DNA of 64,000 bases from Anaerolineales bacterium (lineage in GTDB: Bacteria > Chloroflexota > Anaerolineae > Anaerolineales > UBA11579): positions 62,554-126,553 of the forward strand of contig JASFQL010000001.1 of NCBI GenBank assembly GCA_050115475.1, given 5' to 3'. Shown here piece after piece: positions 12,093-62,661 of the stretch. Numbering within the stretch: the stretch's first letter is position 1; every line of letters starts with the position of its first letter. The notes beneath the pieces are model-generated. The model was not told where the DNA came from. It was given only the letters and a program-made list of their open reading frames with translations, and did no database searches. The position numbers and the translations under genes are program-made.

Positions 12093-12163
12093 GTAATCAG
12101 TTGATCGGTCAATCAGGAAATATCACGTATATCCTGATTGACTGATACCTGATCACTGATTAC
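12093..12163. terminator. Long imperfect palindrome between convergent genes (possible bidirectional terminator)
   Basis: Core perfect inverted repeat TCAATCAGGA (12109-12118) / TCCTGATTGA (12132-12141). Outer arms GTAATCAG (12093) / CTGATTAC (12156). No clean U-tract. Confidence 0.4.
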
Positions 12164-12225
12164 TTGTAATTAGTAATTAAGTGGTCGTGGGGAAATTAGA
12201 TTCTTAATTCGGCGTTGAAAGCAGC

Positions 12226-13119: not shown

Positions 13120-13137
13120 CGATCAGCCTTTAGAAAG

Positions 13138-13172
13138 TTGTCTGGATGGTTATTATACAACCATCCAGACAA
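13138..13172. repeat. Perfect 14-bp inverted repeat (hairpin) between the ECF S and T genes
   Basis: TTGTCTGGATGGTT (13138-13151), 7-nt spacer, AACCATCCAGACAA (13159-13172). Confidence 0.8.
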
Positions 13173-13188
13173 TAGATATTTAATTCGG

Positions 13189-13737
13189 TCAGCGTCCTGA
13201 CCTGGCCGCGACGGCAGCGTACGCGACCATGAGAATGGGTACCAGGATGGCACCATTCACAGCATCTGTCAATGCGGCAGGGACCCAGTAGCCGACAACA
13301 GCCGTGTTGAAGTCGATACCGCTGAGGGGGATCTCCAGCAAGGAGGGGACCGCCATGCCGACAAGCGCGCCAACTATTGAGTAAATGGCGGCTTTGACAA
13401 GCGTGCCGCCGTCCCTGAAGTTGACCACGCTGGCAGCCATCAATCCGGGGATCAGGCCCATGATACCGTTGCCCAAATCCCAGTGCCACCAGAAGCCCCA
13501 ACCGGTCATGAAGTCACCAAGGATGTTGCCGACAGCGCCGCTTAAGAAGCCGACGACGGGGCCAAAAGCGATCCCAAAGAACATGGGAATAGAGACAGCT
13601 GGCCGTAATGAAACATTACCGGCGGCAGGTAGCGTTAGGATGTTGGTGACGTAGGAAAGGACACCGTATAACGCTGCGCCAATAGCCGCATAGACGACTT
13701 CGCGTGTCCCGAATTTCCAAAGTGATTTATTTTCCAT
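13189..13737 (-). CDS. ECF transporter substrate-specific (S) component, substrate unknown
   Basis: 182 aa with about 6 hydrophobic segments, located between the ECF ATPase and T genes. Confidence 0.65.
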   Translation of the reverse strand: MENKSLWKFGTREVVYAAIGAALYGVLSYVTNILTLPAAGNVSLRPAVSIPMFFGIAFGPVVGFLSGAVGNILGDFMTGWGFWWHWDLGNGIMGLIPGLMAASVVNFRDGGTLVKAAIYSIVGALVGMAVPSLLEIPLSGIDFNTAVVGYWVPAALTDAVNGAILVPILMVAYAAVAARSGR

Positions 13738-16826: not shown

Positions 16827-16899
16827 GCCGAGATAGCTCAGTTGGTAGAGCATGCGACTGAAAATCGCAGGGTCGACAGTTCAATTCTGTCTCTCGGCA
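16827..16899 (+). tRNA. tRNA-Phe (GAA)
   Basis: Acceptor stem GCCGAGA/TCTCGGC, D-loop AGCTCAGTTGGTAGAGC, anticodon loop CTGAAAA, T-arm GGTTCAATTC-type. No encoded CCA. Confidence 0.9.
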
Positions 16900-16926
16900 C
16901 TCCCGGTGTGATAGAATGGCCGGTAT

Positions 16927-16999
16927 GCGGGCGTAGTTCAGTTGGTAGAACACCTCCTTGCCAAGGAGAAGGTCACGAGTTCGAGTCTCGTCGCCCGCT
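16927..16999 (+). tRNA. tRNA-Gly (GCC)
   Basis: Acceptor stem GCGGGCG/CGCCCGC, anticodon loop TTGCCAA, T-arm GAGTTCGAGTCTC. Closely resembles the E. coli tRNA-Gly(GCC) sequence as I remember it. No encoded CCA. Confidence 0.9.
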
Positions 17000-17076
17000 C
17001 TTTTTCCCCCACAGGCTGGTAGCGAATGGTTTCCCCCCCGAAGGCACTATTCCCTATCAGCCGAATCATCTAAACT

Positions 17077-17147
17077 GGCGACGTGGCCAAGTGGTAAGGC
17101 ATGGGTCTGCAAAACCCTGATCACGGGTTCGAATCCCGTCGTCGCCT
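17077..17147 (+). tRNA. tRNA-Cys (GCA)
   Basis: Acceptor stem GGCGACG/CGTCGCC, anticodon loop CTGCAAA, T-arm GGGTTCGAATCCC. No encoded CCA. Confidence 0.9.
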
Positions 17148-17153
17148 CTAAAT

Positions 17154-17187
17154 AAAAAAGCTGCCAAACGGCAGCTTTTTTGTTTTT
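17154..17187. terminator. Bidirectional intrinsic terminator
   Basis: AAAAAAGCTGCC-AAAC-GGCAGCTTTTTT, followed by GTTTTT. A-run and T-run flank the stem. It sits between the tRNA cluster (+) and a convergent minus-strand gene. Confidence 0.75.
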
Positions 17188-28381: not shown

Positions 28382-28402
28382 ATGTTGCAGTTCTGCAGTC
28401 TG

Positions 28403-28500
28403 CTCATCTGCCAGTGTCTACTGCCGGAGTTGGCACCTTCACGCTTGCGTGTGGGTTGCCGAGGTTTCAACGGGCCGGTCCCTCCACCTCTCTGGATGAG
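28403..28500 (-). promoter_or_regulatory. SAM-I (S-box) riboswitch aptamer
   Basis: Minus strand reads CTCATCCAGAGAGGTGGAGGGACCGGCCCGTTGAAACCTCGGCAACC...GGTGCCAACTCCGGCAG...GCAGATGAG. This matches the conserved S-box core (AGAGnGGnGGAGGGAC-GGCCC-TGAAACC-GGCAACC...GGTGC-AA-TCC-GCAG...GATGAG). Confidence 0.85.
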
Positions 28501-28532
28501 TCGTACTCAATCGTTATCCGGATATTTGCGAG

Positions 28533-33439: not shown

Positions 33440-36400
33440 ATGTTTGGAATGGACTCGACTACGCTTGGAATTATTTTCGTTGCTGTTGGGGTTGTATTCT
33501 TGTTGCTTACCCCCCTATTGCTCCGGCTCGTACCATATTTGCGGCGTGTCACCCGGTCTTCATCCTCACCCTCAGTGTTTCCCTCGGATCTTCCCCCGAA
33601 TGAGAATGCAGTATTGGTTGTGCAGGAAGGCGGGCGGGTGATATATCTCAATGCTCGCGCTCGTGAATGGTTCAACCTGCTTGAAAGCGATACGCCCAAT
33701 CTCGAAAGGTTGGCCCGCAACACACGCCCGAATGAGGCTTTCCTTAACCTGTGCGCGGCTCCCGGGCGTGCTCGATTCAACCTGCACCAGTCATTGATCG
33801 AAGGCGTTTCCTACCAGATGCCATCTGAAGGACAGTCGGCCATCATGGTCACACTGCAGCAATTACAATTGAGTGGCTTGGAGGATGATGGTGGGCAGGC
33901 AGCGCATACGCTCAGCATTTTCAACGAGATCAGCCAGGATATGTCTGCCAGCTTGGACCTGCCGACCACCATTGAAACTATCCTGGAGAGTATTGATCGC
34001 TTGATTCCCTCCGATTTCTCAGAGATCACCTTATGGGACCAGGAAAACGAGTACCTCATTCCCTATCGTTTTCTCGTAGACGATGATGGCGTTCGCCGGC
34101 TGAAGAGGGGTTCAGACCGTTACCCGGTGACAGAAGGTTATTCAGGGCATATGGTATCAAATCAGGAACCTCTCATTATTGATCGGGTCAATGAATTCAC
34201 CGGTGCAAAACAATACGTAAACCGCCACCAATTCCCCATTAACTCTTTCTTGGGGCTCCCGCTCCATCTGCGGGGATTGATTATTGGTACGATTGAGCTT
34301 GCTTCCCAAACCCCGGAAGCGTTCAACCAGGGAGATTTAGAAGTCCTCGAAACACTTTCGGGGCATGCTGCCATCGCTTTGCAGAATGCCATCACACACT
34401 TCAAAGAACAGCAGCGCGCCACCGAAATGGCTGGCCTGGCAGAGTTGGCCCAGGTGAGCAGTACAATCTATAGTACCGATGAGCTCTACCAGCACCTGAT
34501 TGAATACATTTCCCCCCTGTTGAATGTGGAGATATTAGGCTTCCTCATCTATAACGAAGCCACACGCACCCTGGAAGGACAGGTACCTTTTCAGGGATTC
34601 CCTGATCAATTCACGATTTTATATAAGACCGTCATTGAAGAAGGTAGCTTGGCTGAAAAACTATGGGGAGAACAGGATATCATCATCACCGATGATATGA
34701 GCGATTCTTCGCCCTTGGGTTTGTTGGGGCTCAGCCCTTTGACCCAGGCGGCAGGCATACGCGAAACTGTGCTGCTGCCGCTGTGTTCCGGCAAACACTC
34801 ATTAGGATATCTCCAGGTTGCCAATAAATTGGACGGGTCGATGTTCACCGATGATGATTTGCGATTGTTGCGTATCATCGCCGGACACACCGCCCCCATC
34901 CTGGAAAATGCCCACCTTATTCGGCAATCCCGCCGTCGTGCTCAACGCGCCGAAGCCTTACGCAGGGTAGCCAGCCTGGCAGGGTCTGGGGCGACGATCG
35001 ATGAGATACTGAATTTTTCCGCGATGGAGTTGAGCCGCTTCTTGTATGCAGACAAGACCGTGCTGCTTCTCCTCGATGAGAATCTCGGCAGGCTGACGGT
35101 CCACGCCAGTTCACTCGTGGGCATAGACCAGGATAGTGCCAAACGCCTGACCGATTTCCTTGCCAGCGAAACCAGCTTGGGAGAGACTGTGACGACTAGC
35201 ACACTGCCCCTGATCTTTGATGATATTGAAGAAAGTCTGGCGGTCTCACCCTTTTATCACCGTTTATTCCAATGCTTGCCTGAAGTCCAATCCGCCATCA
35301 CCGTCCCCTTGATTATCCGGGATCGCGGCATTGGTGAACTCATCATCACCAGTACACAGGCAAACTTTTTCCACGTCAACGATAGTCTCTCCGCTGCAAC
35401 GGCCGCCGGTCAGCTCGCCAGTGCTCTAGAGCGATCCACTTTACTCACCCAGACAGATGAGAGCCTTCAACGCCGTGTGGATCAGCTTTCGACACTCAAC
35501 CGCATTGTTTCCGAATTGAATACCGCCGAAGATCTGAAAAAATTGCTCAAACAAGTTCGGAACGAAGTTGTCCGTACCACCGGATCGGATGAAGGGTCTG
35601 TCCTCTTGTTTAAGATGGAAGATGGTTCACCGAATTTCCATGAAATCGTGAATATTCAGGGGCCGTTTACCAGTGAAAAATTAGGGACTCTCGAACGAAA
35701 AGCTGTGAAGAAAGGTGTTGCTCTGGTAGCCGATGACGTTGAAAAAAATGGAGATAATCTTCCTTTGGCCAATGTCCGGTCTTACATGTTGGTGCCGGTT
35801 ATTTACCTCGGTAAAGTGATCGGATTGATACAGCTTTACAGTAAAAAACCAGATCATTTCGACCAGTTTGCCATGGAGGTGGCCCAAAACCTGGCTGTTC
35901 AGGCAGGAATTGCTATTAGTAATCTCCAGCGTTACCAAGACCAGTATGAAAAGAACAAAGACTTTTCCCGTCAATTGGGGTCCTTGGGGAAATTACTGCA
36001 AACTACTCAATCCCTCCAACCCGAAATGCCGATTGCAGAGTCGATGTCTGTTATCGCAGAAGGTATTCGTGAATCGAGTGTGTTTGATATCGTCATGGTC
36101 TATGGGTGTGAACCTGGTGATAGTTCCTTGCGGTTGGTTGCTGGAGCAGGGGTCCCATCAGATCAGCTCGAAGAATCTTGGGGTGCCAGGTACGGCTGGG
36201 ATCAACTCGATCCTATGATTCAGCCCGATTACCGCCGCGGCGATTCTTATTTTATTCCCTACTCCAAATCGTCTGAACTCCCATCTTTGATCCCGGATTA
36301 CGCCCTCATGGTTCTCACCATTCCAGATGATTCAGAAAATGCCTGGCAGCCCGGTGACAGGTTGGTCGTCCCCCTTCAAAACAATCAAGCGCATCCCATA

Positions 36401-39400
36401 GGTTTGATCGCTGTGGATGCCCCCCGTGACGGCCTTCGCCCCGATGACCTCTCCATTGAGACCCTGGAATTCTTTGCCGCTGAAGCCGCCCTGGTGATTG
36501 ATAGCTTCCAAAAGGCGGATGAACTCAGGCAGCAGATGACACTCATCGAGAGTGAGATTGCTCGTGCAGAGCAGTCAGGCCCTGCCAACCAGGAATACCT
36601 CTCGGTGATGCTCCAGAAGGATCTGGAACAGACCATCGCCATCCAGCAGCTTTATGACCGGGCCAGGAATATCCGGGTGGGGTTGAGAATAGCCGATATG
36701 ATAAATCGCCAGCCAAACCGGGAATCGGTCCTGACTTCTCTTGCCAGCCAGATGCTCACAGAGATGGAACTGGATATTGCCCTGGTCGCCGAATCATCCG
36801 AGGGGGGGCCTCGTTTATTGAACCAGTTCGGGAATCTCCCCCAGGGTTCGAATCCGCAAGCCTTGTTGGGCCAGCGCAATCCCCTGTGGCAGGCTCTCCA
36901 GACTGGAGAGACCATCTTTGTCTCAAATTTAGATGAAAATTCAGAATGGCAAAACACGCCCTTGTTGAAGAGCCTTGATACAAAAGGCTTCATCTCCCTG
37001 CCGATTGCTTCTGATGGGCAGGTGGAAGCCGCCGTCCTTGCCGTAAGCAACACTCCCCTCCCGGACGTGACCAAAGAAGATGAGCAGATTTACGACCTGA
37101 TTGCCAATCAGGTCTCCATCACCCTGCAGAACCTCAACCTGCTCACCGAAACCCGCAGAAGGCTGCGGGAAGTGAACCTGTTGTTGGATTTCAGCCGCGA
37201 ATTGGGGAGTCTGGATTGGCAAGAAATCCTCAATACCTTATTGATTAGCATCCGCCAGGTGATGCCGAATGCCCATGGAGCCATGATCGCACTTTACGAT
37301 GAAGACCAGGCCGTCTTGAACACCCAGGTGGCGGCAGGCTATACCGACAATGAACTCATCCAACAAATCAACCATGATACCGATGGATCACTTCTCGGAA
37401 AAGCTTATCAACAGAACGAGACCCTGATCGTCACTGAAATGGATTTCGCAAACCAATATCGCCTTTCTTCTGATGATCTCCTCCGGTATCGAGAAGCCAC
37501 TGGGGGCCGTCTGCCGGTATCTTGTATGGCCGTGCCGGTCAAGACCAGTGATACCACGCTCGGGGTTGTCCTGTTGGATAACTTCAACACACCAGCAGCC
37601 TTTTCAGAGGAGGACATTGCCCTGGTTGAGTCCCTCACTCAGCAGACGGCTCTAACACTCGAAAATGCGCGTTTGTATGAAGAAAGCCGCCGCCTGAACG
37701 AAGAGCTTGAACAGCGGGTCGCCGAACGCACGGAAGAGCTTGGGCGCGAACACCAGTTCACCCAGACCCTCTTGCGGATCAGCACGGAGTTATCTTCCAG
37801 TCTTGACCTGGACATGGTGTTGAACCGCTCGCTGGAGACTCTCAATCAGGTGACCGGCGGAGAGCAGAGCACGATTGTCATCATCCGGCCGCCGCAGGAG
37901 TACCTGATTTACAGGGCCGGGTCGGGGATTCACGAAGCGCCGCCGACCGGGGGGCGAATCTCCACTTTGAAGGTTGGCGAAGGCCTTGCCGGTTGGGTGG
38001 TCAAACACCGTAAACCTGTCGTCGTGCCCGATCTCTTGCTGGATGAACGCTGGAAGAAAGATCACGGCCTCACCACTGTCTACCGCTCTGCCATCTCCGT
38101 GCCTCTGACTGTGGGGGCCGATGCCCTTGGATGCTTGATGATCTATCACCGCGAACCGAACCACTTTAGAGCGGATCAGATTGACGCCATTCAAGCGGTG
38201 GCGAACCAGTTTGCGGTTACGATTAATAATGGCGAACTCTTCCGGCTGATTAGGGATCAGGCCGAAGATCTCGGAAAACACCTGCGCGCCCAGCAGATCG
38301 AGGCCAGCCGTTCCACGGCCATGTTGGAGGGCGTCGCCGATGGCGTGTTGGTCACCGATAACAACAGCGTCATTACCTTGTTCAACGATGCAGCCGAGGT
38401 CATACTCAAACTTAAGCGAGAGCAGGTCATCGGGAAATCGTTGGAAGAATTTATCGGTTTGTTTGGGGGGGCAGCTCAATCCTGGATGGATACGATTCGA
38501 GAGTGGTCCACAGACATGAGTAACCAATCTGAGGGGGCGATGTATTCTGAGCGCATCAACCTCGAAGATGGGCGCGTGATTTCTATACACCTCGCACCGG
38601 TGAGTGATCCCAAAGAGTTTCTCGGTACCGTTTCGATTTTCCGTGATATCACTCATGAGGTCGAGGTCGACCGCTTGAAATCCGAGTTCGTTGCCACGGT
38701 CAGCCATGAACTGCGTACGCCGATGACCCCCATCAAAGGCTATGTCGAATTCCTGCTTATGGGCGGGGCAGGTGACCTGAATGAAAAACAGGTCGAATTC
38801 CTGGATATCATCAAATCGAATATCGACCGCCTCAGCACCTTGGTGAACGATTTACTGGATGTCTCCCGGATTGAGGCCGGAAAAGTTGCCCTCTCATTCC
38901 AACCTATCGATATAATGGAAGTGTTGGAAAAGCTTACAGATAGTGTTCGCCAGCAGGCGGAAGAAGAAAATGGGCGCTCCTTGAACTTTGAGATTAACAC
39001 GCCCAAGGACCTCCCCAGTATTTACGGTGACGTCGACCGGGTGCGCCAGATTTTGAATAATCTCTTGGATAATGCCTATAAATACTCTCCACCGGGTAGT
39101 AAGATTACGATCGACCTCGCCATAGCCGATGACGAGGTCCAGGTGGATATTAGCGATGAAGGGATTGGTATTTTCCCGGATGAACACGAACGTATCTTCG
39201 AACGCTTTTATCGTGGCGAAAATCATCTCGTCATGGCAACAGCTGGCACCGGCCTGGGCCTCTCGATTGTGAAAGAACTGGTTGAAATGCACGATGGGCG
39301 TATTTGGGTCACCAGCACTGGTGTGCCCGATGAGGGCAGCACTTTTTCTTTCACACTTCCTATCTACCATGCTGATAGAGAAGAGGAGACGACACCAATC

Positions 39401-39409
39401 GAAGGATAA
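33440..39409 (+). CDS. Giant sensor histidine kinase: N-terminal TM, many GAF-type domains, PAS, HisKA, HATPase_c
   Basis: 1989 aa. Repeated GAF-like modules (e.g. GLPLHLRGLIIGTIEL, VPLIIRDRGIGELII, VPVIYLGKVIGLIQL, VPVKTSDTTLGVVLL, VPLTVGADALGCLMI). PAS region (GVLVTDNNSVITLFNDAAE), H-box FVATVSHELRTPMTPI, N/G boxes NLLDNAYKY and GTGLGLSIV. Confidence 0.9.
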   Translation: MFGMDSTTLGIIFVAVGVVFLLLTPLLLRLVPYLRRVTRSSSSPSVFPSDLPPNENAVLVVQEGGRVIYLNARAREWFNLLESDTPNLERLARNTRPNEAFLNLCAAPGRARFNLHQSLIEGVSYQMPSEGQSAIMVTLQQLQLSGLEDDGGQAAHTLSIFNEISQDMSASLDLPTTIETILESIDRLIPSDFSEITLWDQENEYLIPYRFLVDDDGVRRLKRGSDRYPVTEGYSGHMVSNQEPLIIDRVNEFTGAKQYVNRHQFPINSFLGLPLHLRGLIIGTIELASQTPEAFNQGDLEVLETLSGHAAIALQNAITHFKEQQRATEMAGLAELAQVSSTIYSTDELYQHLIEYISPLLNVEILGFLIYNEATRTLEGQVPFQGFPDQFTILYKTVIEEGSLAEKLWGEQDIIITDDMSDSSPLGLLGLSPLTQAAGIRETVLLPLCSGKHSLGYLQVANKLDGSMFTDDDLRLLRIIAGHTAPILENAHLIRQSRRRAQRAEALRRVASLAGSGATIDEILNFSAMELSRFLYADKTVLLLLDENLGRLTVHASSLVGIDQDSAKRLTDFLASETSLGETVTTSTLPLIFDDIEESLAVSPFYHRLFQCLPEVQSAITVPLIIRDRGIGELIITSTQANFFHVNDSLSAATAAGQLASALERSTLLTQTDESLQRRVDQLSTLNRIVSELNTAEDLKKLLKQVRNEVVRTTGSDEGSVLLFKMEDGSPNFHEIVNIQGPFTSEKLGTLERKAVKKGVALVADDVEKNGDNLPLANVRSYMLVPVIYLGKVIGLIQLYSKKPDHFDQFAMEVAQNLAVQAGIAISNLQRYQDQYEKNKDFSRQLGSLGKLLQTTQSLQPEMPIAESMSVIAEGIRESSVFDIVMVYGCEPGDSSLRLVAGAGVPSDQLEESWGARYGWDQLDPMIQPDYRRGDSYFIPYSKSSELPSLIPDYALMVLTIPDDSENAWQPGDRLVVPLQNNQAHPIGLIAVDAPRDGLRPDDLSIETLEFFAAEAALVIDSFQKADELRQQMTLIESEIARAEQSGPANQEYLSVMLQKDLEQTIAIQQLYDRARNIRVGLRIADMINRQPNRESVLTSLASQMLTEMELDIALVAESSEGGPRLLNQFGNLPQGSNPQALLGQRNPLWQALQTGETIFVSNLDENSEWQNTPLLKSLDTKGFISLPIASDGQVEAAVLAVSNTPLPDVTKEDEQIYDLIANQVSITLQNLNLLTETRRRLREVNLLLDFSRELGSLDWQEILNTLLISIRQVMPNAHGAMIALYDEDQAVLNTQVAAGYTDNELIQQINHDTDGSLLGKAYQQNETLIVTEMDFANQYRLSSDDLLRYREATGGRLPVSCMAVPVKTSDTTLGVVLLDNFNTPAAFSEEDIALVESLTQQTALTLENARLYEESRRLNEELEQRVAERTEELGREHQFTQTLLRISTELSSSLDLDMVLNRSLETLNQVTGGEQSTIVIIRPPQEYLIYRAGSGIHEAPPTGGRISTLKVGEGLAGWVVKHRKPVVVPDLLLDERWKKDHGLTTVYRSAISVPLTVGADALGCLMIYHREPNHFRADQIDAIQAVANQFAVTINNGELFRLIRDQAEDLGKHLRAQQIEASRSTAMLEGVADGVLVTDNNSVITLFNDAAEVILKLKREQVIGKSLEEFIGLFGGAAQSWMDTIREWSTDMSNQSEGAMYSERINLEDGRVISIHLAPVSDPKEFLGTVSIFRDITHEVEVDRLKSEFVATVSHELRTPMTPIKGYVEFLLMGGAGDLNEKQVEFLDIIKSNIDRLSTLVNDLLDVSRIEAGKVALSFQPIDIMEVLEKLTDSVRQQAEEENGRSLNFEINTPKDLPSIYGDVDRVRQILNNLLDNAYKYSPPGSKITIDLAIADDEVQVDISDEGIGIFPDEHERIFERFYRGENHLVMATAGTGLGLSIVKELVEMHDGRIWVTSTGVPDEGSTFSFTLPIYHADREEETTPIEG

Positions 39410-39412
39410 GAC

Positions 39413-40072
39413 ATGGCAAAAATATTGATAGCAGAAGATGAGCGCGATATTAGAGATTTGATTACTTTTACACTTCGCTTTGCGGGCCATGAAGTGGTGG
39501 CGACATCCAATGGTGAGGAGGCTTACTTTAAAGCTCAAGAAGTCAAGCCCGATTTGGTTTTGATGGATGTCCGTATGCCGCGCATGACCGGTTATGAAGC
39601 CTGTAAGAAAATGAAGGAGAATCCGGATTTACAAGGGATCCCCATCGTTTTCCTCTCGGCAAAAGGGCAAGAAGCAGAAGTTCAAGCTGGGTTAGAGGCG
39701 GGAGCAGTTGAATATATCCTGAAACCCTTTGCGCCAGATCAACTTACGTCACGGATCAGTGTTTTGCTTGAACAACACAAGTCAATCGGCCCTGCTGATG
39801 TGAAGGATGAACCATCTCAAGAAATTACCAGACCGAGAAAAGAACTGAGGAGAATACCGGAAAGACCAACTTATCCGTATAGAGAAGAACGTACTCCGGA
39901 TGGAGAAGGTCGTATTCCGGATGGAGGACGCCGTACGCCGGACGGATTGCGCCATAATCCGCCTGGAGAACGACGCAATCCGGATGGAGGATACCGTGAG
40001 CCGCCTACAGAGCCGGGCAGCTCAATGAGAGGGACTGGCGAACTGGATGAAGATGCCAACGATGTTGGCTAG
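39413..40072 (+). CDS. Single-domain response regulator with a repeat-rich C-terminal tail
   Basis: REC motifs (ILIAEDERDIR, LVLMDVRMPRMTG, ILKPF), then a ~90-aa Pro/Arg/Gly-rich tail. Starts 3 nt after the kinase stop. Confidence 0.85.
   Translation: MAKILIAEDERDIRDLITFTLRFAGHEVVATSNGEEAYFKAQEVKPDLVLMDVRMPRMTGYEACKKMKENPDLQGIPIVFLSAKGQEAEVQAGLEAGAVEYILKPFAPDQLTSRISVLLEQHKSIGPADVKDEPSQEITRPRKELRRIPERPTYPYREERTPDGEGRIPDGGRRTPDGLRHNPPGERRNPDGGYREPPTEPGSSMRGTGELDEDANDVG
39890..40015 (+). repeat. Tandem 21-bp (heptapeptide) repeats inside the response-regulator tail
   Basis: In-frame units RTPDGEG / RIPDGGR / RTPDGLR / HNPPGER / RNPDGGY / REPPTEP. The DNA units start at 39890, 39911, 39932, 39953, 39974 and 39995. 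Confidence 0.85.
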
Positions 40073-44418: not shown

Positions 44419-45807
44419 TCACTTCCGCTTCATCAAATACATCCGTCGTTCGCTTTCCTTGATATCTTCAGAGGTGACGATCTCATAATAGGGTTTGAAG
44501 GCTGCTTCCATACCTGCGAAGCTGTAGTTCGGAAAGATATCTTCGCGGGTTGATAATAAGCGCTGCACCTGCGAGTCGCTCTTGGGGATGAACTCCAGGA
44601 TCAACCAGGGGGATAAACTGGCAAAATACTCGGCGACCATTTCTAGGGGCACGTTGTTTGAAATCGACAGGTGGTGGATCACAGCCAGCCCCATGATGAG
44701 GTCCGGTGTGTTGCGCCCCAACAAGCTGCGCCGCTCCCGGTTGCCCCACCCGATGTCCGGGCTGGGGTTGGTCAGGTCGAGCGCCAGGGGGAGCAGGTTC
44801 GTTTCTTTGTGGGCTTTGATCTCGCGGTAATTCTTTTCGACTGCATCCGTATCTATATCGAATGTTATTGTTGGGATGCCTTTTTCGCTTGCAATCCTGC
44901 TGAATACACCCACATTCCCGCCCAGGTCCCACACCATTTTGGGGTCCGCCTGTTTGACGTACTTCGCCACGAGTTCTTTCTTGTGTTCAGCGGCGGGGAG
45001 CGTGTAGTTTGTATCTTCGTAATATTCTCCCCATTCGGTGCCCGAGAAGTCCAGTTCGAGCTTTTCGGTGGTTCGTTCCAGGCTGTCGATGAGACCCAGC
45101 AGACTGGACTTACTCATCTTGCGGGTCTGGGATACCTTGCCCACGTCTTCGGCAGCGTAGCGTTTTTGGGCGGTGGCATGCAGGTGGATGTGTGACAGCA
45201 AGCCGAAGTTGAAACGCGTACGCCTCGGCAGGAGGCGGCTGGCAAGGTCCAGGGGGACACCGTCGATGTACACCCGCAGAAGCTGGCTTAAACGCACGTC
45301 GTTGTAGGCCATGAGGGTGAGCGGCGCCAGGAAATGCTGGCAGTACTGCCGGTAGGCTACCCAGGGCTGCCCTTCCTGGTAGATTTCAAAGGAGAGGGTG
45401 TCGATGAGGACAGGTTTGGCGTTGTCCAACCGGAATTGGATGTTGAAGTTGCTGCTGTCTTTGAGCGACATGCCGTGTTTGAGTGCCCGTTTCTGGATTT
45501 CCAGGGTGAGAAGGGCGGCATCTTTCAACTGGCTGAAGCACCATTCGTAGGGGTAGGAGATGAAGCACAGTTCTTCCGGCTGGATGACCTTGTAGGCCAA
45601 CTTGGGATCAGGGGGTGAAACATCCACCTCGGTGTGGGAAACGAGCATGTCGGATTTGACGAGGTGGTCGTACAGCCCGGATTCGAGAAGGCGGTCGAAG
45701 TTCTCCTGGTAGACCCGGTTGACCTGTCGGTAGAGTTTCTGGTTTTTGAAGAACAGGAATCCGCTAGGGTCGCGAAAGGATGCAGGCAGTTTGGGGCTAT
45801 TCTTCAT
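44419..45807 (-). CDS. Two-domain SAM-dependent methyltransferase (unassigned N-terminal domain plus class I MTase)
   Basis: Start at the ATG at 45807 (MKNSPKLPASFRDPSGFLFF). C-terminal MTase motif I VWDLGGNVGVFS and AVIHHL. The upstream 64 codons of the track ORF overlap a better small gene in another frame. Confidence 0.7.
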   Translation of the reverse strand: MKNSPKLPASFRDPSGFLFFKNQKLYRQVNRVYQENFDRLLESGLYDHLVKSDMLVSHTEVDVSPPDPKLAYKVIQPEELCFISYPYEWCFSQLKDAALLTLEIQKRALKHGMSLKDSSNFNIQFRLDNAKPVLIDTLSFEIYQEGQPWVAYRQYCQHFLAPLTLMAYNDVRLSQLLRVYIDGVPLDLASRLLPRRTRFNFGLLSHIHLHATAQKRYAAEDVGKVSQTRKMSKSSLLGLIDSLERTTEKLELDFSGTEWGEYYEDTNYTLPAAEHKKELVAKYVKQADPKMVWDLGGNVGVFSRIASEKGIPTITFDIDTDAVEKNYREIKAHKETNLLPLALDLTNPSPDIGWGNRERRSLLGRNTPDLIMGLAVIHHLSISNNVPLEMVAEYFASLSPWLILEFIPKSDSQVQRLLSTREDIFPNYSFAGMEAAFKPYYEIVTSEDIKESERRMYLMKRK

Positions 45808-46027
45808 CTGCGACTTTTTCGTCTTCTGAAGAGCCTTCCCCTTTGTCTTTCCGGAAGAAGCCGGTGATCTTGCCCCAGTAGCTGCGCAGGGCGAAGCCGA
45901 TCCCGACGAGGCTGGCAATGAGTAGTTGGAGGATGAAGCTGCCTGAACCAGGGTCCAGGTAGGCCTGGCCTTTGATGGCAGGGCTGGTGAGGATTTCAAC
46001 CATGATTTCAGGAATATGGACTGGCAT
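45797..46027 (-). CDS. Small membrane protein (hypothetical)
   Basis: 76 aa with one clear TM helix (GSFILQLLIASLVGIGFAL) and an acidic tail. Its stop overlaps the downstream ATG (ATGAAGAATAG), suggesting translational coupling. Confidence 0.5.
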   Translation of the reverse strand: MPVHIPEIMVEILTSPAIKGQAYLDPGSGSFILQLLIASLVGIGFALRSYWGKITGFFRKDKGEGSSEDEKVADEE

Positions 46028-46098
46028 AGAAAATTACTCCTTGATTTGAGGTTTTTCCGGTCAATGATACCCCGATTTGGCTAAGAAAACAACCGGAG

Positions 46099-46135
46099 GA
46101 TTGTTGATTTTAGATTGTTGATTGCTGATTGTTGA
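46099..46135 (+). repeat. Three direct GATTGTTGA repeats at 14-bp spacing
   Basis: Copies start at 46099, 46113 and 46127. They are followed by tandem GGAATTA GGAATTA (46140-46153). Confidence 0.85.
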
Positions 46136-46182
46136 ATGGGGAATTAGGAATTATGGATCGTTCTTTGTGAGTAGAGGGGTAG

Positions 46183-46447
46183 ACCTGTAACCTGTTACGA
46201 TTTGGGGGAAGGGGGTGTTTTACAGGTCTTACAGGTAGGGTACGGGAGGATGATGAATTGTTTACAGGTACTTACAGGTTGTTACAGGTGTTGTGCGTGC
46301 CTTCGGCACGCGCTCGGAGAACGATCCAAGGCGGAGCCTTGGATTCAGGAGAATGAGGTAAGCTCATTCTCCACAACACTGGGTAATAAGAGGGGCTGTC
46401 TCCTTCTCCAGGGGTAGATATGAGGGGTGGGGAATTGCTACCTGTAA
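46183..46447. repeat. Array of TTACAGGT / ACCTGTAA octamers
   Basis: Direct copies at 46220, 46229, 46262, 46272 and 46282. Inverted copies (ACCTGTAA) at 46183 and 46440, plus a near-copy ACCTGTTA at 46190. Confidence 0.85.
46288..46379. ncRNA. Candidate structured element: closing helix enclosing three perfect stem-loops (strand undetermined)
   Basis: P1 GTGTTGTG (46288-95) / CACAACAC (46372-79). H1 CGTGCC/GGCACG (46296-46310). H2 ATCCAAGGC/GCCTTGGAT (46324-46344). H3 GGAGAATGAG/CTCATTCTCC (46348-46372). All pairs are Watson-Crick. Confidence 0.35.
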
Positions 46448-46508
46448 AGTTGTGGGGGTATGTTGATATCCACTGATGAAGTGGTTTGATGGGTGTGATG
46501 TGGGCACA

Positions 46509-47711
46509 CTATTTCAACAGCGAATGAAGCTGCTCGATATCCTCCTGCCATTCCCGGACAATGGCGAGCTGTTCATCGCGCTGATCGGGGTCTTTTACAT
46601 ATCCCTTGGCCATCTCGTGAAGATGTCCATAGTAATCTGCCAGTCGGTCAAGCGGGGCGTGAATCATCCCCAAGGCAGTGGAATCCTGTTCCTCCAAAGC
46701 TGCCTCCAGGCGTTCGAGGAGGCGAAGCCATTCATCCACCGGCAGGGAGGCTTTCTGGCGGAAGGTACGGGTGAGCCACTGCCGCTCAAAGACGGAGAGC
46801 TCCTGCCAGGCCGCGGATTGTTCGGCAAGCGTGGTGCGCGCGGACTGACACAGCACCAGGGCCTGTTCGAATTGTTCAGGAGACAGTGAACGTCCTCCTG
46901 CTGCCTGCCCCGATGCAGACAGATCGATGCCAGCGTCGGCTAAGGCCTGCGTGGATGAAATCTCCTGGCCGCGGTAGCGCGGCGCCAGGGCCACTGCGGC
47001 GGCGAAACCGGCCCCGGCTGCCTCTATCGAGATCGTGTACGGCTTGACGACTTCGAACATTTCCTCCTCGGATTTGCCCATCAGGGCGGCAAGTTTGGGG
47101 ATAGAGGAAAGCGCGGTTTGTGTGGGGACGAATCCCGGCCCAATGGTGAAGGCTGAAACTGCGGTGTTTTCAAATTCCTCACTGAGTGTGGCGCCAAGAT
47201 GAACCTGCGCGGCCTTGAAGGACTCGTAGGCCCCCATATAGGCGCCCCCTGTGGAAGACACACAGACGAACACTCCCCAATCCCGGGTGAGCATCCCGGG
47301 GATGAAGGCGCGGGCGAGCAAAACTGGCCCACGCAGGTTGACACGGTAGCTGGCATCCCAGGCTTCGATGTCCACGTCTTTCACCGCGCCCAACGTGGCG
47401 ACGGTGGCGTTGTTGAGGACGATGTCCACCCCCCCGAAGGTTTTCTGTGCCCGGCGCGCCAGTTTTTTCACGCTGCCCTCATCGCCGACGTCGGTCTTGA
47501 CGAATAAGGCCGCACCAGGGTCGAACTCCTGATTAAGTTGTTGGGCGGCCTGCCGGCCAGTTTTCGAATTGATCTCGGCAATGACGACTTTGCACCCCAG
47601 CCAGAGCAGGGAACGGGCCGCTTCGTAGCCAATGCCGCCGCCTGCCCCGGTAATAAGGGCGATCTTGCCCGCCAATGATCGGCGGGTGAGTTTACCTGTT
47701 TCGATCAGCAT
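46509..47711 (-). CDS. SDR-family oxidoreductase with a ~150-aa C-terminal helical extension
   Basis: TGAGGGIG cofactor motif, YxxxK-type region (YESFKAAQ). ATG at 47711 is preceded by GAGGAGAA. Confidence 0.8.
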   Translation of the reverse strand: MLIETGKLTRRSLAGKIALITGAGGGIGYEAARSLLWLGCKVVIAEINSKTGRQAAQQLNQEFDPGAALFVKTDVGDEGSVKKLARRAQKTFGGVDIVLNNATVATLGAVKDVDIEAWDASYRVNLRGPVLLARAFIPGMLTRDWGVFVCVSSTGGAYMGAYESFKAAQVHLGATLSEEFENTAVSAFTIGPGFVPTQTALSSIPKLAALMGKSEEEMFEVVKPYTISIEAAGAGFAAAVALAPRYRGQEISSTQALADAGIDLSASGQAAGGRSLSPEQFEQALVLCQSARTTLAEQSAAWQELSVFERQWLTRTFRQKASLPVDEWLRLLERLEAALEEQDSTALGMIHAPLDRLADYYGHLHEMAKGYVKDPDQRDEQLAIVREWQEDIEQLHSLLK

Positions 47712-59839: not shown

Positions 59840-59868
59840 TTGACAAAATTCCTCGTTTCCTGTAATAT
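59840..59868 (+). promoter_or_regulatory. Near-consensus sigma70 promoter
   Basis: TTGACA (59840-59845), 17-nt spacer, TAATAT (59863-59868). Confidence 0.5.
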
Positions 59869-59907
59869 GTCGGCTGTCTACATATGTCGGAAGACGACAT
59901 ATGTAGA
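59865..59907. promoter_or_regulatory. Operator-like repeat set / 5' hairpin overlapping the -10 and the predicted transcription start
   Basis: Perfect 13-bp inverted repeat TCTACATATGTCG (59877-59889) / CGACATATGTAGA (59895-59907) with a 5-nt spacer. A third direct half-site ATATGTCGG at 59865-59873 overlaps the -10. Confidence 0.7.
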
Positions 59908-60048
59908 TAAGAGATAACTGGAAATCAATAATATCCTCCTGCGGGAACCCCCTTTTTAATTTTATTGATTTTGCCTCAAAACACTATTGTTAAAAGCGTT
60001 TTGGCAGCGCATTTGTACTTCAATAATAGTCTTTGACTGAACACGAGG

Positions 60049-61890
60049 ATGATGATGAAAGCTAAAAATAAGGTTCAAAACAGCGAAAATATGCAGGCTG
60101 CTAAGATTTTGTTTTTGATAATGCTACCTGTTTTCTATTTGGTTATTTTTAGTCTGTCTATGTCGTTATCGAAAAATGGCCTTAGAGGAGATAGTCTGAA
60201 CTCAAGAATGGATGTGGGTAAGGAAACCCTAATAGTTTCCAATCAATCTGACCCTTACTATGGATTGGCCCAAAAAATTGCGTACGAAGAAAATCTTGAG
60301 GTTGTTGAAAACCTCACTGAAGCATTGGGGTTCAATCCAAAGTATATCTTGTTGGTAGCTTCACCTGAGAATTTTACTGAGGAGAGATTGCTGAGTATTG
60401 GTTCTTCTTATAAGCGTATGGATTACTATCCTGCCTTGGGCATTATTTCAGGAAGCAGTTTAGAAAATGCCGAACAATTATGGAGGAATGGAAAATCAGT
60501 TCATTCAGGCGAGAATTACTTTGGCGGGGATGTTGAAAAAGGACAATTGATTGAAGAACCAGCAATCTATAACATTGACGAGGGTTACAATGGAAAGATA
60601 GAACTCAATAAAGACAATCTATCTGCTATATTGCTACAAACTGAATATTTTTACTGGTCTCGTCATGTTTCTGAAGACAAGTGGTTTTGGAATACTGAAT
60701 CGAAAGATTACGGCAAAGATGATCAGTATTTTGCAGAAGATATTCCAAAGCTGAATTCAATTGTGATTTACACACCAAGTTGCGGCTCATTTCAGCCGTG
60801 GACAGATGATTCAATTTCTCTGGGCTTTGTCGATAAAGGCGCGGCTGCGTATGTTGGGCATGTTCGCAGTCCTATTTCCAATAGTTTTTTTATAAGGCAC
60901 AGGTTAGCTGTTCCAGGTATCTATTCCTGGGATGAGTTCCCTTTAGGGATCGCAGCGCAAATTCAGAATAAAGAAACTGCAAATATGGTTTACAACACAC
61001 CTTTGTTTTTTATGTTGGGGGATCCGCGAATATATTTATTAGAAGACAAGCCTTATCAAATCAACTCTGACAGGGTGAACAATATTGGGAGGAGGGTAAT
61101 TACGGGAGAGTCAAATGAGAGAGGTATTCTGGCTATAAAAATTGAGGGTGGGGCTGCGTATGAGTATTTGAAAACGAGTACCACATCTGTTAGCGATAAT
61201 GATCCTTTCTATAATAATGATCTACAAATGTTAAATTTGGGCGCAGATAAGTATATTCTGTACTTCCACACAGGTGGAGATTTTCGGATTGAACTTTTCA
61301 CGGATACGCCCATCATATGGAAATTGACTGATCCTATTGTCGATGTTTTTGATTATTCCTGGATAGCAATTGGCGTCGTACAAAGTCCATTCTCTCTGAT
61401 TTTATTGGTGATATTTACCGCTGTTGTAATTTATAAAATTATTCGTAAAAAAACACCTATCAGGAATTACCGAGTTTTATTTCTGGCGGGGCTTCTCTAC
61501 GCTCTCGTGCGACTTATTTATCTCCTGACACGGATAGGCAGCTACACTGTCAGCGCCAGCATAGTCGAAATGACAATTTTTGAGATTATTCTTGGTTTTG
61601 TAGGCGTGTTTTCCAGCACAGCATCTGGATTGGTGATGATGAGAACCAGTAAAAAAACGATCGGTAAGGTCATTGGGATGATTTTAGCTCTTTTACCCCA
61701 ACTTTTACTTACCGGGTTTTATTTCGCTAATATCACCCTTACCAATATTATTATGAGGAACAATACAGCAAACCTTTGGCTTTGGAACTATAAAGCATTT
61801 TGGATGCCACTTGGTGTGCTGCTGTTTGAAGCACTCATCATGTTTGCCTTGTATAGGATTTCAATTTTCAGGCAGAGGACTGCCATATAG
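60049..61890 (+). CDS. Hypothetical membrane protein: N-terminal TM, large extracytoplasmic domain, C-terminal multi-TM region
   Basis: 613-aa AT-rich gene. The order of ILLVASPENF ... SRHVSEDKW ... IYTPSCGSF ... GAAAYVGH ... MLGDP resembles caspase-fold C25-type peptidases (from memory, weak). There are about 5 C-terminal TM helices. Confidence 0.5.
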   Translation: MMMKAKNKVQNSENMQAAKILFLIMLPVFYLVIFSLSMSLSKNGLRGDSLNSRMDVGKETLIVSNQSDPYYGLAQKIAYEENLEVVENLTEALGFNPKYILLVASPENFTEERLLSIGSSYKRMDYYPALGIISGSSLENAEQLWRNGKSVHSGENYFGGDVEKGQLIEEPAIYNIDEGYNGKIELNKDNLSAILLQTEYFYWSRHVSEDKWFWNTESKDYGKDDQYFAEDIPKLNSIVIYTPSCGSFQPWTDDSISLGFVDKGAAAYVGHVRSPISNSFFIRHRLAVPGIYSWDEFPLGIAAQIQNKETANMVYNTPLFFMLGDPRIYLLEDKPYQINSDRVNNIGRRVITGESNERGILAIKIEGGAAYEYLKTSTTSVSDNDPFYNNDLQMLNLGADKYILYFHTGGDFRIELFTDTPIIWKLTDPIVDVFDYSWIAIGVVQSPFSLILLVIFTAVVIYKIIRKKTPIRNYRVLFLAGLLYALVRLIYLLTRIGSYTVSASIVEMTIFEIILGFVGVFSSTASGLVMMRTSKKTIGKVIGMILALLPQLLLTGFYFANITLTNIIMRNNTANLWLWNYKAFWMPLGVLLFEALIMFALYRISIFRQRTAI

Positions 61891-62088: not shown

Positions 62089-62661
62089 ATGACTGATTAC
62101 CATCATACGATACCCGGGCTGAATGGGGAGATTCCTATCACGATCCGCAGAGATAAACGTCTCAAGAAATCCTCCCGCTGGGAGAGGCAAAAAGACGGCT
62201 CTTTCCTGGTGCGGATCCCCCAACGGCTACCGAAGCGGTATTTCCCTGAACTGCTGGAAGACATCAGCCAGCAGATGGTGAAGAGACGCAGGCGGGCCAA
62301 ACGGCGGACGGACGCCGACCTGCAGCGGCGCGCCGAGGAGATCAACCGGAAGTATTTCAAGGGACAACTCAACTGGGAAGCCATCCGCTGGGTGGGCAAT
62401 ATGACGGCCCGCCTGGGGAGCTGTACGACGAGCGGCTCGACCGAAGGCCACATCCGCATCAGCGATAAGATCAAGAACTGGCCTGACTGGGTGGTCGACT
62501 ACATCATCGCCCACGAACTGACCCACACGATGCATGCCAACCACAGCCGGGCTTTTTGGGATGCGCTCAGGAAAGCTTACCCGCTGACAGAACGCGCCCG
62601 CGGCTTCGTGAGGGGCGTCGGCTTTACCGAGGGGCTGGACTACGAAAACAATGGCGAGTGA
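62089..62661 (+). CDS. YgjP/SprT-like zinc metallopeptidase (DUF45/M48-related)
   Basis: HExxH motif in IIAHELTHTMHANHSRAFW. Start set at the ATG at 62089 (MTDYHH...). Confidence 0.65.
   Translation: MTDYHHTIPGLNGEIPITIRRDKRLKKSSRWERQKDGSFLVRIPQRLPKRYFPELLEDISQQMVKRRRRAKRRTDADLQRRAEEINRKYFKGQLNWEAIRWVGNMTARLGSCTTSGSTEGHIRISDKIKNWPDWVVDYIIAHELTHTMHANHSRAFWDALRKAYPLTERARGFVRGVGFTEGLDYENNGE

Follow-up and report, generated by a model that had tools for sequence, protein, structure and literature searches.

Here, we describe a 92-nt palindromic element in the spacer between a short-chain dehydrogenase (SDR) gene and a two-gene operon of an Anaerolineales bacterium (Chloroflexota; assembly GCA_050115475.1, contig JASFQL010000001.1). 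The stretch analysed, hereafter the window, comprises 64,000 nucleotides of bacterial chromosome (positions 62,554 to 126,553 of the contig), and the coordinates below are counted from its first letter. The element folds into a closed four-way junction, and among the 105 related loci compared in this study (designated by L and a number; 80 of them from a metagenome collection) it was complete in only two strains of one species. Judging from the sequence and its context, we tentatively read it as a young, lineage-specific cluster of palindromes that may have been built by template switching around an older hairpin (H2), and that may act as a terminator or pause site without a U-tract, possibly assisted by Rho.

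Architecture and folding of the element

The original prediction, made from the letters alone, had described two outer segments that are exact complements of each other (GTGTTGTG and CACAACAC) with three perfect hairpins between them, here called H1, H2 and H3 (Table 1). Direct reading of the sequence and a repeat finder confirmed the closing helix. H2 and H3 have the stems of 9 and 10 bp ascribed to them, while H1 proved to be 7 rather than 6 bp long because G46295, borrowed from the closing helix, can pair with C46311. As had also been noted, C46372 belongs to both H3 and the closing helix, the element starts within the final TTACAGGT repeat of the adjoining array, and none of the hairpins is followed by a U-tract. 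The overlap with the repeat amounts to 2 nt, and each trail contains at most three T. The nested fold comprises 33 pairs (7+7+9+10), and the claim that it is entirely of the Watson-Crick type holds for all 33, with neither G-U pairs nor mismatches. Loops measure 3 nt in two of the three hairpins, and gaps of 3 and 12 nt separate one hairpin from the next. The H3 arm CTCATTCTCC corresponds to the 5' arm as read on the minus strand, which is the 3' arm in gene orientation.

Compared with shuffled controls, the element was far more stable. The minimum free energy of the RNA was -51.0 kcal/mol for the plus strand (z-score -6.35) and -50.1 kcal/mol for the minus strand (z-score -7.84), and none of 200 shuffles folded as well; with DNA parameters, the fold reached -30.9 kcal/mol (z-score -6.96). 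The junction was retained when folded inside a 416-nt context, and pair probabilities of the closing helix were 0.6-1.0. In a GC-corrected scan of both strands of the 64 kb (15,978 segments of 92 nt), the element ranked third, behind two intergenic hairpin clusters at gene ends (13137-13228, minus strand; 12105-12196, plus strand). The fold is far better than chance, yet this genome has others of its kind. The two clusters themselves, at 12095-12200 on the plus strand (-41.9 kcal/mol, z-score -6.8) and at 13125-13235 on the minus strand (-50 kcal/mol, z-score -7.2), are located at the 3' ends of genes and include perfect stems of 14-16 bp without U-tracts.

It had also been proposed that H1 could extend to 9 bp at the expense of the closing helix, giving two mutually exclusive folds as in a switch. 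The extended H1 needs a T46294-G46312 wobble, and it is confined to the plus strand for that reason. Its probability is ~0.25-0.31 and it costs the closing helix just its two innermost pairs, so that the supposed switch is reduced to a local breathing of two base pairs with a probability of ~0.3.

A possible terminator or pause site behind the dehydrogenase gene

The genes on both sides of the spacer are co-directional. The element has the same direction as the dehydrogenase gene and begins, with its first hairpin, 130 nt past the stop codon; if transcribed on the gene strand, it would be part of the 3' untranslated region of the dehydrogenase mRNA. The earlier statement that the strand cannot be told holds only in part, as the C-rich, G-poor gene strand points to the minus strand if the element acts as RNA. 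Outside the element, the gene strand of the spacer contains 33-38% C and 9-12% G.

The RhoTermPredict scheme requires a hairpin in the 150 nt after a Rho-loading (rut) site (PMC6407284). Here, a rut site was taken as a 78-nt region with a C/G ratio above 1 and a C every 11-13 nt, and the hairpin pause site had to lie no more than 150 nt downstream. The best 78-nt segment, 46504-46427 on the minus strand, qualifies as a rut region with 31 regularly spaced C and 6 G (C/G 5.2), and the element follows 48 nt after it, well within the distance set for a pause hairpin. Segments that combine a C/G ratio of at least 3 with regular C spacing account for 0.3% of those in the 64 kb (32 of 9,836). Positions 46073-46293 and 46385-46501 make up the longest tract of the window with a C/G ratio of at least 3, and its sole interruption is the element. 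On the minus strand of 46073-46501 the ratio rises to 8 in some 78-nt segments, and many GGGG runs are present on the opposite strand.

Hairpins without a U-trail are catalogued as non-canonical terminators, named I-shaped when single and U- or V-shaped when in tandem, and most predicted terminators cluster within 50 nt of the stop codon (PMC3013805). Under the WebGeSTer definition of a tandem terminator (more than one hairpin, less than 50 nt apart, at most three U in the trail), the three closely spaced hairpins without U-trails form such a set. Among dehydrogenase orthologues, L097 shares the first ~30 C-rich nt past the stop codon, and L099 carries a 15-bp perfect hairpin without U-tract 5 nt past it.

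The following course of events may be suggested. The dehydrogenase gene would be transcribed on the minus strand into the spacer, where RNA polymerase would cross ~130 nt of C-rich, G-poor and weakly structured RNA resembling a Rho-loading site and would then meet a four-way junction of about -50 kcal/mol. This junction might serve as a tandem hairpin terminator or pause site without U-tract, possibly assisted by Rho, and in addition as a block to 3' exonucleases. The dehydrogenase mRNA would thereby be ended or stabilised, and the independently promoted operon would be shielded from read-through. The palindromes may have been built around the older H2 by local inverted duplication (template switching) in a hypervariable spacer. 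Transcription through the element, termination or pausing, the involvement of Rho and the template-switch origin are all points that we infer. If the proposal is true, the element would be another tandem hairpin set without U-tract, possibly assisted by Rho, that separates transcription units in Chloroflexota, a phylum whose termination signals are poorly charted.

Several observations weigh against this proposal. In L005 the two genes adjoin with no hairpin between them, and the module therefore seems dispensable. The hairpins lie 130 nt from the stop codon, beyond the usual 50 nt. C-richness continues downstream through the repeat arrays and may therefore be a property of the spacer, not of a dedicated Rho site. 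The constant half-sites and variable centre of H2 are explained no less well by a protein-binding DNA palindrome than by an RNA hairpin, and a template-switch origin of H1 and the closing helix is without statistical support.

Comparison of the spacer among strains and sister species

Contigs encoding an identical 76-aa protein contained two versions of the spacer. The L001 version is identical to that of the window; L002 differs from the window by 25 substitutions in 1,972 nt and has eight ACCTGTAA repeats instead of five (three extra). Two of the three spacer substitutions between the strains fall in the element, whose conservation is no better than that of its surroundings. Both are unpaired, one in the H3 loop (46359) and one in the linker (46317), for which the chance is ~(24/92)^2 = 0.07. 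The strain pair says little in this respect, and zero changes in 68 paired positions is not unusual at the divergence of L002.

The 90%-identity cluster of the methyltransferase protein contained nine sequences, and four sister species (L005, L101, L103 and L104) were compared. Their nucleotide identity to the window is 87.5-88.0%, and third codon positions differ by 25-29%. In L005, the dehydrogenase gene and the operon are adjacent as in the window, and the spacer consists of three arrays of CACCTGTTGA repeats with no hairpin; L103 and L104 have different repeats (CATCTGTG) and no hairpins. L101 contains a 33-nt block, CATTCCCCCGAATCCAAGACTTTATCTTGGATC, that is significantly homologous to CATTCTCCTGAATCCAAGGCTCCGCCTTGGATC of the window (0 of 500 shuffles). 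In its H2 (positions 127-147 of L101), the flanks and the outer 7 bp are the same as in the window, and the centre keeps its length of seven bases but differs at five of them. One G-C pair of H2 has become A-T through a change in each arm, and another pair is broken. Shuffled sequences do as well in 251 of 500 cases, and the double change carries no statistical power. L101 also holds the tail of the H3 arm CTCATTCTCC, as CATTCCCC, unpaired and with no complementary partner anywhere upstream.

No significant homology to L101 was found for H1, the linker or the closing helix, and the likeness of the composite palindromes of L104 and L006 to the element was not significant either. More distant relatives have short, dissimilar spacers or other neighbour genes. 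A metagenome search with the methyltransferase yielded 80 loci, all at most 63% identical and none with the element. The complete element is present in only two strains of a single species, and the lack of homologues that the original prediction had named as counting against it is largely what was observed.

The operon's upstream neighbour differs in almost every lineage; the spacer therefore appears to be a recurrent rearrangement junction. Decayed fragments of a DUF2238-like gene are found in L103 (1763-2000) and L104 (2000-2060) in the place of the DUF2238 and dehydrogenase genes, which are intact in the window.

Direct-repeat arrays with a 10-bp phase are present upstream of the conserved promoter in every close lineage, with a unit that differs by species: ACCTGTAA in the window (46183-46289 and 46440-46447), GGTGTAAC in L101 (195-335), CACCTGTTGA in L005 (215-440) and CATCTGTG in L103 (2085-2150); the array of L002 is at 800-900. 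A single inverted copy next to the promoter tracks the array (TTACAGGT in the window, GTTACACC in L101, TCAACAGGT in L005 and CACAGGT in L103). This suggests either a co-evolving protein-binding array or concerted evolution, and the arrays may outrank the hairpin element in interest.

Origin of the palindromes

An 11-mer at 46154-46164 recurs, exact and inverted, 153 nt away at positions 46318-46328, where it spans part of the linker and of the H2 arm next to it (TGGATCGTTCT/AGAACGATCCA). The promoter-proximal module of L005 corresponds, when inverted, to the longer form CTCGGAGAACGATCC (0 of 300 shuffles), and a direct copy of this module lies in the distal 130 nt (1 of 300 shuffles). Template switching during replication is documented as a way in which perfect stems can arise in a single event (PMC8794818). 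The 33 perfect pairs, the inverted 11-mer, the new H3 arm and the variable repeats point to a recent construction of the palindromes at the DNA level. H2 is probably the older core, to which H3, H1 and the closing helix would have been added in the lineage of the window, presumably after the split from L101 and before the divergence of the two strains. The complementary arm of H3 is considered new because L101 has the other arm without a partner; alternatively, loss may have occurred in L101.

A further reading, which we regard as doubtful, is that a multi-helix RNA is being born here. Successive inverted duplications within the last ~12% of nucleotide divergence would have added two perfect hairpins and a closing helix to an older hairpin under constraint, and the compact junction would already be in use, either as a terminator or stabiliser in the 3' untranslated region or in the role of a new small RNA. 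If true, this would rank as a rare case, in bacteria, of a complex RNA fold assembled de novo by template switching. The wider value of the element is modest and evolutionary; by comparison with the sister species, it consists of one old hairpin, one hairpin with a new second arm and two helices without an ancestor.

Searches for further copies and known RNA families

In a blastn-short search of the spacer against the window, no match exceeded 12 nt, and no other copy of H1, H2 or H3 occurs in the 64 kb. The element itself found only the same locus of the same species among the first 87 loci, and the H2 pattern was seen across the 105 loci only at its own site and in L101. The exact H3 pattern gave six unrelated terminator-like hairpins in 185,579 species genomes (evidently without the source genome), which sit after tRNAs and genes in other phyla. 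Viral contigs did not contain the H2 pattern, and distant blastn of the phage and plasmid collections gave no meaningful match. Visual inspection had hinted at a dispersed family of CTGATT-type repeats, which BLAST did not bear out.

The element was rejected as a repetitive extragenic palindrome (REP) or bacterial interspersed mosaic element (BIME), as copies are lacking in the 64 kb and the related loci and no GTAG lies beside any of the three hairpins. It was also rejected as a miniature inverted-repeat transposable element (MITE): an 8-bp terminal inverted repeat is present, but the flanks (TTACAG/TGGGTA) show no target-site duplication and no further copies were found in the 64 kb, the related loci or the species genomes scanned.

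A dispersed family of GC-rich palindromes, GGCG(C/G)AGCATGCT(G/C)CGCC, occurs in the sister genomes, upstream of the operon and just past the methyltransferase stop codon (L006 1141-1156; L101 53-68 and 2080-2095; L102 1757-1772; L103 3912-3927; L104 3985-4032), with none in the 64-kb window. Its arms differ by a symmetric double change, and GTAG precedes the palindromes in L006 and L104, as in REP elements. At L104 3985-4032, two palindromes closed by GTAG/CTAC form a three-way junction (-34.3 kcal/mol, z-score -3.9), which is a smaller analogue of the closure of the element.

The statement that the element matches no known RNA family was borne out. Rfam 15 gave no match in the element region at gathering thresholds, and at a permissive threshold only chance matches appeared (best ftsZ-DE, 22.7 bits versus the 72.2 needed, E 0.067; the rest E >1). 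ARAGORN found no tRNA or tmRNA gene in 46000-46600, no promoter-like site was predicted beside the element on either strand, and the two open reading frames that overlap it (71 aa on the plus and 47 aa on the minus strand) have no Pfam support. Further candidates were rejected as well: a canonical (L-shaped) intrinsic terminator (neither strand of the element has a terminator-like site, and trails contain at most three T), a riboswitch or cis-regulatory leader (the element is ~190 nt upstream of the promoter, and the complete element is not in the four sister species), a tRNA-like cloverleaf (signature positions of a tRNA are lacking, and neither ARAGORN nor the Rfam tRNA model gave a match) and a replication origin (only one partial DnaA-box-like 9-mer, no dnaA or dnaN nearby, no skew inversion). 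The element is no evidence for a new RNA family.

Alternative explanations

A purely neutral origin is nearly as likely as the terminator or pause reading, though unlikely if taken by itself. The element would then be recent debris of replication slippage or template switching in an unstable spacer at a rearrangement junction, with no function of its own. This agrees with the quick turnover of the spacer, whose repeat units and copy numbers vary between strains and species, with the varying upstream neighbour of the operon among lineages, with the lack of the element in L005, L103 and L104, with its inverted and direct copies of local modules, and with a strain-level conservation no better than that of the surroundings (two of three spacer substitutions). 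However, four mutually compatible perfect helices, among them an 8-bp closing helix that fits exactly around the other three, would hardly arise except by selection or a very specific mechanism, and neutrality fits poorly with an H2 outer stem and flanks that are unchanged where third codon positions differ by ~27-29%, or with strain substitutions that both fall outside paired positions. The caveat in the original prediction that the pairing might act at the DNA level was well placed. H2, and perhaps the other palindromes, could bind dimeric proteins and, with the 10-bp arrays and the 11-mers, control the promoter, for example by looping. We consider such a regulatory site rather unlikely, although it should be given some weight, since H2 has the behaviour of a dimeric operator and the inverted 11-mer pair and the co-varying arrays also suggest a protein-bound regulatory region. 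H2 can be written as ATCCAAG-N7-CTTGGAT, and its half-sites and flanks are identical in the window and L101 while five of the seven central bases differ. The inverted pair TGGATCGTTCT/AGAACGATCCA is 153 bp apart with its promoter-proximal copy conserved in L005, the arrays and the promoter-adjacent inverted copy change in step between species, and all pairs are Watson-Crick with two loops minimal. Yet the three palindromes are unrelated in sequence, so that each would call for a protein of its own, the H2 site recurs in the 64 kb no more than expected by chance, the closing inverted repeat would have no role, there is no adjacent regulator gene, and H2 lies ~230 nt upstream of the -35 element.

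That a small palindromic element, mobile or dispersed like a MITE or a REP/BIME, was inserted into the spacer appears very unlikely. Presence in some related species and absence in others, together with 8-bp terminal inverted repeats, would fit it, as would the dispersed GC-rich palindromes of related genomes, some of them after GTAG and one a two-palindrome composite with a short closing helix. No second copy, however, was found in the 64-kb window or the 105 related loci, the exact-H3 scan of species genomes yielded unrelated hairpins only, and neither a target-site duplication nor a GTAG motif is present; moreover, L101 keeps H2 and half of H3 in place, which argues for stepwise local growth and not for one-step insertion. 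The least support of all readings was obtained for the leading idea of the original prediction, a stand-alone small RNA or riboregulator with a structure of its own, on one strand or the other and perhaps switching between two folds, and we regard it as still more improbable. The strong and robust fold, the unpaired position of both strain-level substitutions and one compensatory pair in H2 are in its favour. These stand against an Rfam search whose best score was far below the gathering score, the lack of flanking promoter-like or terminator-like signals on either strand, conservation confined to one species, the absence of G-U among the 33 pairs, a position upstream of the promoter of the downstream operon that makes a 5' leader impossible, and an alternative fold of only two pairs at ~0.3 probability.

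Genomic setting and feature coordinates

Features of the locus are listed in Table 1. In gene orientation, the spacer consists of the 130 C-rich nt, the element, three ACCTGTAA repeats, a 26-nt spacer and two more repeats, followed by the inverted repeat copy, a module with AGAACGATCC and three TCAACAATC repeats, and ends with the promoter block TTGTTT-17-TATCAT (46092-46064), a ribosome-binding site and the start codon. Inverted copies of the TTACAGGT repeats are at 46183-46190 and 46440-46447. The element lies before the promoter block of the downstream operon, at a distance of ~190 nt, and is therefore not a 5' leader.

The promoter block is near-identical in L005, L101, L103 and L104 and recognisable in L006 and L007. 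Its 40 nt (CCGGTTGTTTTCTTAGCCAAATCGGGGTATCATTGACCGG) are almost invariant at ~88% nucleotide identity and recognisable at 72-80%, and the TTGTTT-17-TATCAT promoter is bracketed by a 5-bp inverted repeat (CCGGT/ACCGG); the block is conserved beyond the needs of a bare promoter. At 46099-46135, three exact GATTGTTGA repeats with a 14-nt period overlap a second promoter-like site (minus strand, TCAACA-17-TAAAAT). L101 carries a pair related to these repeats (TCAGCAATC), and L005 has none.

Table 1. Coordinates of the element, its parts and the surrounding features in the window.
Feature	Coordinates	Strand	Remarks
Upstream gene, 400-aa short-chain dehydrogenase (SDR)	46509..47711	-	
Intergenic spacer holding the element	46028-46508	between two - strand genes	481 nt
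C-rich, G-poor tract from the dehydrogenase stop codon to the element	46380..46508	-	38% C, 12% G; resembles a Rho-loading (rut) site
Whole element, closed four-way junction	46288..46379	- (gene strand, judged from context)	92 nt
Closing helix, half CACAACAC	46372..46379		repeat-finder inverted pair; C46372 common to H3
H3, GGAGAATGAG-GTAAG-CTCATTCTCC, 10 bp, 5-nt loop	46348..46372		L002 substitution 46359 in loop
H2, ATCCAAGGC-GGA-GCCTTGGAT, 9 bp, 3-nt loop	46324..46344		read as probable older core
Unpaired linker GCTCGGAGAACG	46312..46323		holds L002 substitution site 46317
H1, GCGTGCC-TTC-GGCACGC, 7 bp	46295..46311		confined to the species of the window
Closing helix, half GTGTTGTG	46288..46295		repeat-finder inverted pair; G46295 common to H1
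Five TTACAGGT repeats, 9-10 bp spacing (ACCTGTAA on gene strand)	46220..46289	+	8 matches versus 1.2 expected
TGGATCGTTCT, partner of the inverted copy inside the element	46154..46164		promoter-proximal module, also in L005
Conserved promoter block of the downstream operon	46057..46096	-	TTGTTT 46092-46087, 17-nt spacer, TATCAT 46069-46064
Downstream operon	44419..46027	-	76-aa membrane protein 45797-46027; 462-aa methyltransferase-like protein 44419-45807

Other features of the window

A 13-bp perfect palindrome, TCTACATATGTCG-GAAGA-CGACATATGTAGA, at 59841-59932 (plus strand) directly follows a near-consensus promoter (TTGACA-17-TAATAT) upstream of the gene at 60049, and looks like an operator or a hairpin in a 5' untranslated region. 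We also observed an S-adenosylmethionine (SAM) riboswitch at 28401-28502 (minus strand, 84.7 bits) and three tRNA genes at 16827-17147 (plus strand), the last of which is followed by a bidirectional, A/T-flanked terminator hairpin (17154-17181). An open reading frame of 1,989 aa at 33440-39409 (plus strand), whose C-terminal region resembles, by eye, a histidine-kinase-type region, directly precedes a putative response-regulator-like gene (39413-40072).

Comparison with known systems

Intergenic palindromic hairpin clusters are a known kind, and the element belongs to this class. REP and BIME clusters stabilise upstream mRNA and act as terminator-like sites, and a GTAG-type tetranucleotide beside a palindrome is the RAYT cleavage motif of REP elements. 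The element resembles them as an extragenic palindrome cluster between co-directional genes in a group whose sister genomes carry a dispersed palindrome family. It differs in that no other copies were found, no GTAG-type motif is present and its three palindromes are mutually unrelated. With the tRNA cloverleaf it has a four-way junction and a closing stem of 7-8 bp in common, but its arms measure 7, 9 and 10 bp.

For the terminator or pause reading, the closest counterparts are two. Like Rho-dependent terminators (PMC6407284), the locus has a region with a C/G ratio of 5.2 just past the stop codon and stable hairpins within 150 nt, although the C-richness of the spacer runs well past the element and the heuristic has a high false-positive rate. 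Like the non-canonical terminators of WebGeSTer (PMC3013805), it shows several stable hairpins 3' of a stop codon on the transcribed strand with trails of at most three U; in contrast to them, an outer helix of 7-8 bp encloses the hairpins, which start 130 nt from the stop codon instead of within ~50 nt. Terminators rarely have an outer helix of this sort around three hairpins.

With regard to its origin, the element looks like a case of perfect multi-stem folds arising quickly at the DNA level. It shares with template-switch hairpins (Monttinen and Loytynoja 2022, PMC8794818) the perfect Watson-Crick stems, changes clustered at the H2 tip, one H3 arm that pre-exists unpaired in L101 and an inverted 11-mer copy inside the element. 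Those hairpins were shown by ancestral reconstruction on many sequences, whereas two informative lineages are available here. Overall, the element would act most like a tandem terminator without U-tract, possibly assisted by Rho, and in appearance it comes closest to hairpins generated by template switching.

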